IMG/VR virus record: IMGVR_UViG_2711768659_000002 | Location: 6,897 to 70,896 of that record | Reading direction: 5' to 3' (one strand) | DNA length: 64,000 bases | Origin: a virus | Lineage: Duplodnaviria > Caudoviricetes | Shown: positions 57,029-62,442 of the stretch, piece after piece | How positions within the stretch are numbered: position 1 is the stretch's first letter | Layout of the letters: each line of letters opens with the position of its first letter | Notes under the pieces: model-generated | What the model saw: the letters and a program-made list of their open reading frames with translations, nothing else | What the model was told of the DNA's origin: nothing | The model's database searches: none | Made by a program: the position numbers and the translations under genes

Positions 57029-57057
57029 TTGAATTGTATACCCATTGGATATATAAT
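57029..57057 (+). promoter_or_regulatory. Sigma-A promoter of the rightward small-gene cluster, with operator in the spacer
   Basis: TTGAAT-17-TATAAT; TTGTATACCC overlaps the -35 and spacer. Confidence 0.7.
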
Positions 57058-57806: not shown

Positions 57807-57815
57807 AACCTCCGG

Positions 57816-57866
57816 CCGTCTGCGGGTACCGCACTGATGATGGTCTCTGAAATGAGGCCGAAACGG
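57816..57866 (+). ncRNA. Type III hammerhead ribozyme
   Basis: ccGUC | ugcgg-gua-ccgca CUGAUGA u ggucuc-ugaaau-gaggcc GAAA cgg; predicted cleavage after C57820. Confidence 0.8.
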
Positions 57867-57886
57867 AAAGTGTAAAGGAGGTTCAT

Positions 57887-58333
57887 ATGATGAAAAAATC
57901 TTATTTTAATTGTGACAGAGGATTTGCCGAAATGCTGCAATATAACCACAAGACCTTGGCGGACGAAGTCGTTGATATTTTAAAATCTGAATTCTTGAGG
58001 CTGGGCGTCCTGCCAGAAGACCGCAATGAATACACAGAGAACTGCATCAAGAGCATAAAAGAAGCAATCCAGTACTGGAACATAGGAACCGAAGCCATTG
58101 AACACATGAACGAGGCCATAGAAAGCCTTGAAGCATACCTGGAAGAAACAGAGGCCGCTAAATCATGTGAAGAGTTAAAAAATGCATTGCTCCACTTAAA
58201 AGATGCTTTTATTGGTGTCTTGCAGGCCAGTGATTACGAAACAGAGTTTGACGGCCTTAAATACCCGTTTGACTGCAATTTTAAAGAGATGGTAAACAAA
58301 GTCATCGACTGGGTTGACTTTGAGATAATATAG
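57887..58333 (+). CDS. Hypothetical acidic early protein
   Basis: AAGGAGG RBS right after the hammerhead. Confidence 0.75.
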   Translation: MMKKSYFNCDRGFAEMLQYNHKTLADEVVDILKSEFLRLGVLPEDRNEYTENCIKSIKEAIQYWNIGTEAIEHMNEAIESLEAYLEETEAAKSCEELKNALLHLKDAFIGVLQASDYETEFDGLKYPFDCNFKEMVNKVIDWVDFEII

Positions 58334-58439
58334 CAGCCTGGCACCGACCAAAGTACACAGGCTGCTACGAATACACAACCAACAACGGGCCGTGTGACTA
58401 TATTTTAGCACGGCTCCCCACGAAAGGGGAAGAAATATT

Positions 58440-58808
58440 ATGATTAACACAAATTTAAAGGCAACAGCCATATTTGATAATGGCGGAGGATTAACTCTCC
58501 AATTAGGTGATAATTACGGTCACTACTATCCACACAACATGCAACAGGCCGCAGAGGACTACGCTCAATACCTGGCAGATCAGGACACCAGTTGGTGGGA
58601 GGGCAACGAGGATGACGCAAGAGAGCTGGAGCCTGAGCTGGAGCAAATCCGTAACGGTGGATATAAGGTTTATAATGCGTCAGATATCGCCGGGTTACTC
58701 CCAATGATTGATACCCAGCAGTTTAAAGAGGATGGATATATTACGGGTTGGTATAATGTTGACGAGTTTGTAACGGCCCTGTCGGCATTGACTAATGTAA
58801 GTATTTAG
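58440..58808 (+). CDS. Hypothetical early protein
   Basis: ORF after a structured spacer. Confidence 0.7.
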   Translation: MINTNLKATAIFDNGGGLTLQLGDNYGHYYPHNMQQAAEDYAQYLADQDTSWWEGNEDDARELEPELEQIRNGGYKVYNASDIAGLLPMIDTQQFKEDGYITGWYNVDEFVTALSALTNVSI

Positions 58809-58858
58809 GTTTATCAACAACAATTTTGATTCCCGGTTTTCGGGAGAATGGAGGATAT

Positions 58859-59170
58859 ATGACTAAGCTCAATAAATGGTTTGATATGACAAATGATGGT
58901 GAATTGTATACAACGTATACGCGCGATTCTTGGGAAGTTCCCGAGGAGGGAACAGAAATATGGTGTACTGGATGGCCTCGCGGGCAGACGATTAAACCCT
59001 ATGGTGATGGGTGTCATGTTGTGGTAGGGCTGAGCATCTACCACTGTGATCAGCTGATGGAAATTCTTATGCGTTTAGAATCTGAGGGTCACAAATGGGG
59101 TATTGACGGCGTAACAGCCAAACGTGAGCAGCAGATAGGCGGTTATTGGGTACCTGTTCATATCTCATAA
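58859..59170 (+). CDS. Hypothetical early protein
   Basis: GGAGG RBS. Confidence 0.65.
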   Translation: MTKLNKWFDMTNDGELYTTYTRDSWEVPEEGTEIWCTGWPRGQTIKPYGDGCHVVVGLSIYHCDQLMEILMRLESEGHKWGIDGVTAKREQQIGGYWVPVHIS

Positions 59171-59247
59171 TTTTGCAGATGGGCGGCCTTATGGCCGTTA
59201 ATGCGCTCCCGGATACCGGGAACCCGTCCAAAGCCGGGAAGCATGAC
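59166..59247 (+). ncRNA. Circularly permuted (type P5-like) twister ribozyme
   Basis: GCA-GA-UGG-GCGGCC-uuau-GGCCGU-UAA-UGC-GC-[P3]-A-CCCG-UCCAAAGC-CGGG; both pseudoknots pair; predicted cleavage U59199/A59200. Confidence 0.8.
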
Positions 59248-59262
59248 AGGAGGGTTTATCAG

Positions 59263-59565
59263 ATGGGAAGTTTATCACAGCTCAAAAAAGAATTGCAAAA
59301 GGGCAAAAGGTTTATAGTGCTTGACCATCAAAAGCCAGACTTAATTGGAACAGTCAGAGAGGTAAGCACCGTTCAAGGCAATGCCATTTATACCAAAATA
59401 GCAGACAATCCCGAACATAAGCATTCCATATGCAATGGCGGCAGAGGTTTGAGAATGGATTACGCAAAAGCAAGCTGCTATGAGTTTGGCGACAGCATCA
59501 AATGGTTTGCGGCTCCTATCGGAACTGACGATAACAGGCTGATTATGGAATTTAAGCTGCTATAA
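59263..59565 (+). CDS. Hypothetical early protein
   Basis: AGGAGG RBS right after the twister. Confidence 0.7.
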   Translation: MGSLSQLKKELQKGKRFIVLDHQKPDLIGTVREVSTVQGNAIYTKIADNPEHKHSICNGGRGLRMDYAKASCYEFGDSIKWFAAPIGTDDNRLIMEFKLL

Positions 59566-59616
59566 GGCTTTATCAGCGGCCCGGCAAATCCGGGCCTGAA
59601 AGGAGGATATAATAAC

Positions 59617-59805
59617 ATGAATATCAAAAAGAAAAACCTGAAGGACCCGCCTGATTTTTGCTTCTGCTGCGGGAGAAGACTGGAAATCACGGAATACGTT
59701 CTTGATCTCGGAACAGCTGGGTCTACATTTGAACTGTGCAGAAGCTGCCTTAATAGGCTTAAAATAAAGGCAGAAAAAGCATTAATTAAGGATGGGCCCG
59801 GTTAA
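59617..59805 (+). CDS. Small Zn-finger early protein
   Basis: CFCC...CRSC; AGGAGG RBS. Confidence 0.65.
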   Translation: MNIKKKNLKDPPDFCFCCGRRLEITEYVLDLGTAGSTFELCRSCLNRLKIKAEKALIKDGPG

Positions 59806-59832
59806 TTCCGGGTCTAAAAGGAGGTTTATCAA

Positions 59833-60045
59833 GTGGCACAAGAAAAACTCTATCATTGTTGCAATACCTGTAAGCATAAAGCGAATAATTTTTATGATTG
59901 CACTATCCCGAAAGAATGCCTTAATGGGTTTAGCGCTTACGAGCCAAACGAAGAAATGGCGAAGCAAGAAGCGGAAGAGGCTTTATCAGTACTCAAAAAT
60001 ATGCCGAGCCCGGCGGTAATTCCGGGCGGAAGGAGCAGATTATGA
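59833..60045 (+). CDS. Small Cys-rich early protein
   Basis: AGGAGG RBS; CNTC. Confidence 0.6.
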   Translation: MAQEKLYHCCNTCKHKANNFYDCTIPKECLNGFSAYEPNEEMAKQEAEEALSVLKNMPSPAVIPGGRSRL

Positions 60046-60320
60046 TACGACAAATGGAAGTAATAAATAGATATCCATATGGAGTACCAACAGCCACAAG
60101 CTTTATCAAGGTAACAGGCGAGGATGGCGTATTTTATGACATTGTTAGGTCATTCGACAGCCAGAAACACAGAGGAATGTTGCAGGATGAAGGCTATGAA
60201 GCCGAGGTTGTGCCACCAAAGGTTGTGCCTTCCTGTACAATGAGAGATTTTACAAATGGTCTTGGAAGTTATATGCCTGTTGTGTTTAGAGATGGCGGGG
60301 ATTTTTACCATAAGCCGTAA
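60042..60320 (+). CDS. Hypothetical early protein
   Basis: AAGGAG RBS; ATGA overlap. Confidence 0.6.
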   Translation: MIRQMEVINRYPYGVPTATSFIKVTGEDGVFYDIVRSFDSQKHRGMLQDEGYEAEVVPPKVVPSCTMRDFTNGLGSYMPVVFRDGGDFYHKP

Positions 60321-60543
60321 TGCAGATTGGTATATATGGGCATCCAACAGGATTTACCCTCTGGCAAGTTCCCAGCTTCGGCAACTTTATCAAGCACACT
60401 GATAGAGGCGAGAGGGCAGTAATGGGTTTATCAGCGGTCCGGTTAATTCCGGGAAAGGGTATATAATAATTTCAATCCACACTTTTCCCGTGACAACCTT
60501 GGTTTACCAAATTCATAATTTTATTTCAAGGAGGAATTGCAAC

Positions 60544-61368
60544 GTGAGAGCAGCTATTTACACACGCGTAAGCACCGAGGAGCAGGCTCGTGAAGGCTAT
60601 TCCCTGGCAGCCCAGGAAAAAGTTTTGCGTGATTATTGCGAGCTTAAAAATATAGAGGTTATAGAAGTATATTCAGATGAGGGCATTTCCGCAGGAACTA
60701 TGATAAAACGTCCGGACATGCTAAGAATGCTTTCAGATGCGAGGGAGTATAAATTCGATTTTATTCTTGTTTGGAAATTGACCAGGTTTAGTAGAAATTT
60801 AAAGGATTTGCTTAATACTTGTGACGAACTCGAAAGACACGGAGTTTATCTGCAAAGTTTTTCTGAAAACTTTGACGGCAAAACACCCGCAGGACGACTA
60901 ATGCGCGGAGTGTTGGGCCTTATGGGGCAATTTGAAAGAGAGGTCTTATCTGAAAATGTTATTCTCGGTTTAACTGAGCGTGCATATGGGGGTGCAAGGA
61001 CATGCAGTCAACTTCTTGGCTATGATGTAATCAAAGGTGGCAGTATGACTGTTAATCAAACTGAGGCAGAGATAGTCAAATTTATTTTTAGTACATACCT
61101 GAAGTACAAAAATTTAACTGAGGTTGCGTCATTATGTCGCCAAAAGGGTTTCCGTGGCAAACGTGGCAGGAAATTTGATGCATTCAAGATTGAGGTAATA
61201 CTTACCCGTTTTGTATATGCGGGGTTTTACAATTGGCATAATAAGCCACTAAAAGGAGATTTCGAGCCAATCATTAGTATCAAAACATACAACAAGACAC
61301 AACAATTGTTAAAGGCTCAAGGTTCAATCGTCGGCAGAAATCGTAAACACGAACTCGTATTTTTGTAG
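60544..61368 (+). CDS. Serine recombinase (catalytic plus recombinase domain; no Zn-ribbon/coiled coil)
   Basis: AAIYTRVSTEEQ..GYSL..Q, DEGISAG...RP, KLTRFSRN, GYD; only about 274 aa. Confidence 0.9.
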   Translation: MRAAIYTRVSTEEQAREGYSLAAQEKVLRDYCELKNIEVIEVYSDEGISAGTMIKRPDMLRMLSDAREYKFDFILVWKLTRFSRNLKDLLNTCDELERHGVYLQSFSENFDGKTPAGRLMRGVLGLMGQFEREVLSENVILGLTERAYGGARTCSQLLGYDVIKGGSMTVNQTEAEIVKFIFSTYLKYKNLTEVASLCRQKGFRGKRGRKFDAFKIEVILTRFVYAGFYNWHNKPLKGDFEPIISIKTYNKTQQLLKAQGSIVGRNRKHELVFL

Positions 61369-61857: not shown

Positions 61858-62442
61858 ATGCTTAAACTACCAAAAATTATTGACCAAAAGTCTGTCAAAA
61901 AAATGCTGGCACAGATCAACGCCGACTGCCCAACCGGCGCCAGAAACTATGCAATAATCATTATGATGTATCGTGCTGGCCTGCGTGTACAGGAGATATG
62001 CGATTTAGGTTTATCTGACTGCAATTTTGAAACGGGGCTAATATACGTCCAGCAGGGCAAAGGTGGCAAGGACCGGTATGTGCCTATGGATGATGACATT
62101 GAAAAATCATTAAAGGCCTGGTTTGCTGTCCGGCCAGAAAGCCAGTTAGTATTTTGCACGCTTGAAGGCGGTCAGTTGATGCAGAGATACATTAGGGAAG
62201 TCTGCTACAGAATATCTGAGAAAGCCGGCGTATTTATCCAGGACGGCGCTGTAAAAAAGCCTGTAAGCCCTCATAAGCTTAGACATACCTTTTTGACAGA
62301 GGTTTTGAGAGAAGGCACTGTAAACATCCGAGAGGTGCAGGAGCTGGCCGGACACAGTAGCTTAAACACAACAATGGTATATACCCATGTGGTTATGGAT
62401 GAGCTGCAGGAGAAAATTAAGAAAAGGAAGGGAATTACCTGA
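61858..62442 (+). CDS. Short tyrosine recombinase (catalytic domain only, FimB/Xer-like size)
   Basis: YRAGLRVQEICDL, GKGGKDR, PHKLRHTF, LAGHSSLNTTMVY; 194 aa. Confidence 0.92.
   Translation: MLKLPKIIDQKSVKKMLAQINADCPTGARNYAIIIMMYRAGLRVQEICDLGLSDCNFETGLIYVQQGKGGKDRYVPMDDDIEKSLKAWFAVRPESQLVFCTLEGGQLMQRYIREVCYRISEKAGVFIQDGAVKKPVSPHKLRHTFLTEVLREGTVNIREVQELAGHSSLNTTMVYTHVVMDELQEKIKKRKGIT

Follow-up and report, generated by a model that had tools for sequence, protein, structure and literature searches.

The 64,000-nucleotide stretch of DNA that was analysed (the window) contained, in a gap between two small prophage genes, an RNA element that belongs to the Twister-P5 ribozyme family (RF02684) by every criterion that could be tested on its sequence. 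This element is very probably an active type P5 twister, carried in a polycistronic prophage message, that cuts itself between U59199 and A59200 and, with a putative hammerhead ribozyme in the same operon, splits the transcript into shorter mRNAs. This interpretation was based on the Rfam match, the intact conserved nucleotides, the covariation among relatives, the position of the element in an intergenic gap, the lack of an internal terminator, the clustering of such ribozymes in related loci, and the prophage setting with its recombinase genes.

Identity and structure of the twister

The whole 64-kb window was scanned against 4227 Rfam families. RF02684 gave a plus-strand match of 44.7 bits, compared to a gathering score of 37.6 bits, with an E value of 4.7e-6 for the window. 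The alignment was full length (model positions 1-58 of 58), and RF02684 was the sole family to score at or above its own cut-off within the window. The host genome (4.9 Mb, 100 contigs) contained a single twister, which was this one. The coordinates of the element, its parts and the features that surround it are listed in Table 1.

Table 1. Coordinates of the twister, its structural parts and associated features, as positions of the window.
Feature	Position	Strand	Description
Best promoter-like site ahead of small-ORF operon	57029-57057	+	TTGAAT-17-TATAAT; consensus scan only
Putative hammerhead core	57813-57869	+	RF00008, clan CL00010; predicted cut after C57820
Hairpin with 14-nt loop	58334-58427	+	Loop UGACUAUAUUUUAG; in gap between ORF 57887-58333 and ORF 58440-58808
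Upstream ORF	58826-59170	+	114 aa from TTG, or 103 aa from ATG 58859; stop TAA 59168-70
Type P5 twister ribozyme, whole Rfam match	59174-59238	+	RF02684
P2	59175-59177 with 59202-59204	+	GCA/UGC, 3 bp; read from sequence
Pseudoknot T1	59180-59182 with 59228-59230	+	UGG/CCA; partner in P4 loop
P1 hairpin	59183-59198	+	GCGGCC 59183-88 / GGCCGU 59193-98, 6 bp including one G-U; loop UUAU 59189-92; read from sequence
UAA cleavage site	59199-59201	+	Predicted scissile bond U59199|A59200; aligned with invariant UAA of Rfam consensus
Pseudoknot T2	59205-59206 with 59233-59234	+	GC/GC
P3, optional stem	59207-59221	+	UCCCGG 59207-12 / CCGGGA 59216-21; loop AUA
P4	59223-59238	+	CCCG 59223-26 / CGGG 59235-38, 4 bp; 8-nt loop UCCAAAGC 59227-34
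Downstream ORF with Shine-Dalgarno	59248-59565	+	AGGAGGG 59248-54; ATG 59263, 100 aa

An initial annotation, made by reading the sequence, had described a circularly permuted twister at this site and had suggested a scan with the Rfam twister-P5 model; that scan returned the full-length, above-threshold match reported here, and every structural feature named in the annotation was present. P1 with its UUAU loop, the UAA site, P2, P3, and P4 with its 8-nt loop were all found at the positions that had been assigned to them, and both proposed pseudoknots, CCA/UGG and GC/GC, were complementary in the window, with the partners of both held by the P4 loop. All upper-case positions of the Rfam consensus were present except for the T1 pair, which was compensated, and the base in the window was the family base at 14 of 14 invariant and 5 of 5 nearly invariant columns of an alignment of relatives (A3, see below).

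The further claim that the chain opens at P5 was upheld for the topology, since loops close both P1 and P3 (UUAU and AUA, respectively) and the two ends of the chain fall at P5, but not for the pairing of the flanks. The additional flanks that had been included as P5 (59166-73 and 59239-47) gave a duplex energy no better than that of shuffled flanks (RNAduplex, z = +0.47), and the flank-to-flank duplex energies of 37 related twisters had a mean z of +0.15 against the same kind of control. Neither a P5 helix nor anti-Shine-Dalgarno pairing between the flanks was found in these comparisons, and both were rejected. The element is therefore designated type P5 by its topology only. A P5 helix is optional among twisters (PMC5408937).

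Covariation among relatives

A core-pattern scan of viral and genome collections gave 50 loci, and the full architecture was present in 36 of 52 distinct matches. Further twisters were added from the same loci, using Rfam, and from relatives of the host. Alignment A3 comprised 49 distinct twister sequences, mostly from phage contigs, and was parsed allowing for the register of P2.

P1, P4, T1 and T2 covaried across the 49 relatives. The outer four pairs of P1 were formed in 45-49 sequences with many pair types, compared to 23-26 in shuffles, and the first three pairs of P4 were formed in 45-48 with four to seven pair types, compared to 20-25. All three T1 pairs were formed in every relative, in the covarying combinations UGG/CCA, GUG/CAC, GGG/CCC, GCA/UGC and GGA/UCC, a level of pairing reached by none of 1000 shuffles. 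The T2 pairs were formed in 47-48 relatives with compensatory changes: the first pair was A-U in 22, G-C in 18, C-G in 4 and G-U in 4, and a homologue from the same genus (G027) had CG/CG where the window has GC/GC. Taken together, the pairing values of T1 and T2 were matched by 0-4 of 1000 shuffles, confirming the two pseudoknots that the initial annotation had named.

The UAA was invariant throughout the alignment. P2 was paired in all 49 relatives, with one change from G-C to A-U; P3 showed a compensatory swap in one locus (L014, CCGGG/CCCGG) and a change from C-G to U-G in another (L005). The annotation had contrasted the 3-bp P2 with the 4 bp of reference twisters. The Rfam consensus does have 4 bp, but the shorter helix is not unusual; it was the commoner form, present in 34 of the 49 relatives.

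Occurrence of the twister in the host genus was sporadic. It was detected in two of 36 other genomes sampled (E ≤ 0.001), and two same-genus homologues scored just under the cut-off, at 37.1 and 34.3 bits. Homology of the small-ORF operon to other operons was patchy and mosaic, and this, together with the sporadic distribution of the twister, is consistent with carriage on mobile phage DNA.

Genomic setting

The host was a Clostridia species whose RpoB fragment shared 80% identity with the RpoB of an Acetivibrio sp. MAG. Its genome (G000) also encodes an RtcB-type RNA ligase (contig C13, 126252-127325, minus strand). Genes for a tape-measure protein, a major head protein, a portal, a large terminase and tail proteins were located on the minus strand at 26-55.5 kb of the window, and this block was therefore interpreted as part of a siphovirus-like prophage. 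A run of about 10 small ORFs, divergent from the structural block, was located on the plus strand at about 57.09-60.3 kb and was followed by genes encoding a serine recombinase (60490-61368) and then a tyrosine recombinase (61858-62442). The small ORFs had no convincing Pfam or PHROG match, and the operon DNA had no match among GenBank phages. As judged by consensus scans, which are also the basis for placing the promoter and the operon limits, no terminator-like site was present on the plus strand between the best promoter-like site and position 60276.

The twister occupied exactly the space between two small ORFs of the same orientation; it starts 3-4 nt past the TAA of the upstream ORF and ends 24 nt ahead of the ATG of the downstream ORF. 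Neither of these ORFs had a Pfam or PHROG match. The nearest ESM Atlas clusters for the downstream protein were viral hypothetical proteins, and no close relatives of it were found in the genome and viral collections; for the upstream protein the ESM Atlas gave nothing usable. The same placement was common in a positional survey of 37 twister loci (L005-L054). In about 27 of the 37, the upstream stop codon lay -2 to +5 nt from the position at which the twister begins, often overlapping it (for example, UAGCAG), and the next start codon lay 10-53 nt past P4 in 31 of the 36 loci for which a downstream start was called.

Two other sequence patterns were observed in this region. The motif BTTTATCAR occurred in eight copies on the plus strand within 1.6 kb (58809-60434), mostly in or adjoining intergenic gaps; the whole window had 21 matches on both strands, compared to 7.5 expected. 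Most copies at 58.8-60.4 kb had the context of a Shine-Dalgarno-to-start spacer, and those at 59254 and 59824 were immediately ahead of start codons. Two gaps (59563-59620 and 60420-60460, plus strand) contained a CCGG-rich hairpin, then GGAGGAUAU, then a start codon. One of these was 85% identical to a stretch of contig C202 of genome G004 and another resembled a stretch of L022; comparison loci for the arrangement were L022 (6272-6325) and L063.

A putative hammerhead and ribozyme clusters in related loci

The second ribozyme of the operon, judged from its sequence, is a putative hammerhead. It scored 36.4 bits (E = 6.5e-5), compared to the Hammerhead_3 cut-off of 48.5, and shared 83% identity with a hammerhead of locus L026 whose own score is 55.3 bits. 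The hammerhead core (GUC triplet, CUGAUGA and GAAA) was present, with a stem III of only 4 bp, and stems I and II covaried with two homologues, L026 and contig C202 of G004 (alignment A2). These results agree with the statement in the initial annotation that two ribozyme classes are present in one operon. The hammerhead starts 7 nt past a stop codon and the twister lies 1.3 kb downstream of it, so that the prophage has a ribozyme-punctuated layout in which both elements are on the same strand, each 3-7 nt past a stop codon. No other Rfam ribozyme was detected in the remaining gaps of the operon at E ≤ 10. Pairing of CCUCC (57809-13) with GGAGG (57877-81), which would hide the ribosome-binding site on the hammerhead side, was considered and rejected, as it was not conserved in L026 or G004.

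Related loci carried up to six ribozymes of three classes, with twister-P5, hammerhead II/III, pistol and twister-sister elements clustered on one strand. Four twister-P5 elements, one pistol and one hammerhead II were found on one strand in L022, four twister-P5 elements inside 1.6 kb in L027, a twister, a hammerhead II and a twister-sister in L014, and a twister and a twister-sister (391-462 and 1500-1555) in L003. In other genomes and on phage contigs (L003, L014, L022 and L050), Twister-P5 was located within approximately 1 kb of a twister-sister or pistol on the same strand.

A leader-type hairpin in the gap at 58331-58442

The gap at 58331-58442 folded far better than shuffled sequence (z = -5.3), and its hairpin had no Rfam match. 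A hairpin with the UGACUAUAUUUUAG loop and a covarying stem recurred in about 22 Bacillota and phage contigs (among them L062, at 1501-1596, and L183, L215, L219, L226, L247, L163, L206, L271 and L273). At most of these loci a micro-ORF of 16-21 codons, with its own Shine-Dalgarno sequence, ran through the loop and ended in ...(R/G)R-V-T-I-F-stop. Variant hairpins kept V-T-I-L-stop with other codons and another stop codon, which suggests that the peptide itself is constrained. The AGGAGG that encodes RR pairs with a CCUCC located past the micro-ORF stop, and the Shine-Dalgarno sequence of the main gene follows 8-10 nt later. The genes downstream encoded class I methyltransferases, GNAT acetyltransferases, an APH-type phosphotransferase, DJ-1/PfpI, DUF4037 and ArdC-like proteins. 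In G004 the hairpin element was directly 3' of a hammerhead.

The copy in the window had no start codon in the micro-ORF frame. No partner complementary to the UGACUAUAUUUUAG loop was found elsewhere in the window beyond chance, and no further copies of the hairpin were found in the host genome. The element is likely to be an uncatalogued leader-peptide translational control element, as judged from these sequence comparisons. Its relationship to this leader-peptide hairpin family makes it unlikely that the gap holds a further ribozyme.

Conservation of the ribozyme with its leader

Window positions 59173-59267 were 87% identical to G004/L056, and the adjacent ORFs had no similarity. When compared to L056, the ribozyme was 88% and the leader 78% identical, with the flanks at background. 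A similar pattern was seen within single phage contigs (L017, L033 and L027), where the twister copies of one contig shared 40-nt downstream leaders that were 90-100% identical; the 150 nt upstream of these copies, and the sequence beyond 40 nt downstream, were at background identity. The twister and its leader of roughly 40 nt, which includes the ribosome-binding site, thus appear to be kept as a cassette-like unit. Since the conserved unit comprises the ribozyme and about 40 nt of downstream leader, and not upstream sequence, the ribozyme would seem to be linked to the start of the message that follows it.

Proposed mode of action and alternative explanations

The twister would be transcribed within a polycistronic message (plus strand, roughly 57.06-60.3 kb) that spans some 10 small genes of the prophage. 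The RNA would fold into P1, P2, P3 and P4, with pseudoknots T1 and T2 holding the structure in place. The backbone would then be cut constitutively at the U59199-A59200 bond through internal transesterification, the twister cleavage chemistry being as described in PMC5408937. A 2',3'-cyclic phosphate is predicted at the end of the upstream fragment, which would terminate with the G+C-rich hairpin P1, 29 nt past the stop codon of ORF 58826-59170. The downstream fragment would begin with a 5'-hydroxyl and retain P3 and P4, with the Shine-Dalgarno sequence and ATG of ORF 59263-59565 no more than 63 nt away. Combined with the hammerhead cut, cleavage by the twister would give rise to shorter mRNAs that could differ in stability and translation. 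Clustered prophage hammerheads have been shown to cut polycistronic transcripts of about 2 kb in vitro, and their processing to single-gene mRNAs was proposed (PMC3088659); processing of polycistronic phage transcripts by ribozymes is also a general proposal in PMC6765202. For the operon in the window, we infer that the genes are co-transcribed and that cleavage takes place in vivo and affects expression.

The sequence data were also compared with explanations in which cleavage does not occur or has other consequences. A decayed or chance look-alike, in which the hairpins act as passive RNA stabilisers, might be suggested by a score only 7 bits over the cut-off and by the two same-genus homologues just below it. 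Such an explanation is very improbable given that all of the family-invariant nucleotides and both pseudoknots are intact, that the E value for the window is low (as above), and that the loss in score is due to natural variation, namely the insertion of P3 and the shortness of P1. It is nearly as improbable that cleavage is conditional, with an alternative fold, or pairing of the 5' flank with the Shine-Dalgarno sequence, inactivating the ribozyme or the ribosome-binding site so that cleavage acts as an on or off switch for the translation of ORF 59263. The sequence CCGGGAA is present twice (59216-59222 and 59234-59240), and UCCCGG at 59207-12 is able to pair with either copy. In the nested minimum-free-energy fold of 59150-59262, a calculation unable to include pseudoknots, it pairs with CCGGGA at 59234-39, replacing P3 and P4, and CCUGUU (59153-58) pairs with GACAGG (59245-50), adjoining the Shine-Dalgarno sequence. 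However, the repeat is absent from L014 and L020, the flank duplexes of the window and of its 37 relatives were no better than shuffled ones, and homologues of the hammerhead do not keep the comparable CCUCC/GGAGG pairing that surrounds it.

Two further explanations accept cleavage and differ in what follows from it. The hammerhead and twister cuts would free an RNA of 1379 nt (U57821 to U59199) with three ORFs, a 5'-hydroxyl and a 2',3'-cyclic phosphate. RtcB joins 2',3'-cyclic-phosphate and 5'-OH ends such as those left by ribozymes; the end chemistry of both classes would suit the RtcB homologue encoded by the host genome, which could rejoin or circularise the freed RNA. That outcome is highly unlikely: no pairing that would bring the two RNA ends together was found, and when Perreault et al. 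searched for splicing or circularisation products of hammerhead clusters in prophages, they detected none (PMC3088659). There is a better, but still doubtful, possibility that selection acts on a portable intergenic cassette, some 100 nt long, with the twister as its 5' half and the leader of about 40 nt with its ribosome-binding site as the remainder. Copied between gene junctions, such a cassette might give unrelated genes the same standard, processed 5' end and ribosome-binding site, and might also serve as a DNA joint, or crossover point, for phage recombination and the mosaic exchange of small accessory genes. The identity of 59173-59267 to G004/L056 between dissimilar ORFs, the near-identical leaders within single phage contigs in surroundings at background, and the patchy homology between operons would all be expected of such a cassette. 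On the other hand, the sample is small, the leaders consist of a Shine-Dalgarno sequence and an A/U-rich spacer and would be convergent anyway, and the crude global alignment that was used has a high background identity (50-60%). The cassette is compatible with self-cleavage of the twister, to which it adds a layer.

Relationship to known systems

The element agreed with Twister type P5 (RF02684) as set out by Roth et al. (2014) and in a review (PMC5408937). It has the same P1, P2 and P4, the optional P3, the T1 and T2 pseudoknots and chain ends at the P5 position, as well as the same conserved L1 and L4 nucleotides and the U-A cleavage site, with a score over the family cut-off. Nothing essential differed. 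The P2 helix has 3 bp rather than the 4 bp of the Rfam consensus, as in most of the relatives, no P5 helix was detectable in the window, and the first T1 pair is U-A where the consensus has G-C, a difference that is compensated.

The operon also resembles the ribozyme-punctuated operons of phages. Clustered prophage hammerheads that flank single genes and lie near integrases were reported by Perreault et al. (2011; PMC3088659), and the gene neighbourhood of twisters and hammerheads led Weinberg et al. (2015) to the discovery of twister-sister, pistol and hatchet, as summarised in PMC6765202. In such operons, as here, several self-cleaving ribozymes of different classes share a strand, each in a gap that separates small hypothetical genes of the phage, with a recombinase or integrase nearby. 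In contrast to the published operons, there are only two recognisable ribozymes in the operon of about 10 genes analysed here, and one gap (58334-58427) has a non-ribozyme, leader-type hairpin. The layout with two classes in one operon has been known in phages since 2011-2015, and this locus is a further clean example of it rather than a new phenomenon.

The proposed mode of action is shared with engineered insulators and polycistron splitters, such as the twister-based pRAP system (PMC9872166), in which a cut between cistrons uncouples the messages and defines the downstream 5' end. Those constructs are synthetic and have measured effects, whereas the benefit of the natural arrangement is one that we infer. 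The initial annotation had argued that the presence of two classes in one operon suggests selection for cleavage itself and not for one RNA family. The reasoning is sound and the conclusion a reasonable one; it is not new, having been published previously (Roth et al. 2014; Weinberg et al. 2015), almost word for word in PMC6765202.

The locus leaves existing knowledge unchanged and provides a well-documented natural example that bears on why phages put self-cleaving ribozymes between small accessory genes. Its twister, hammerhead and third kind of RNA device occupy three consecutive gaps, and the operon would offer a compact test bed if the host can be grown.
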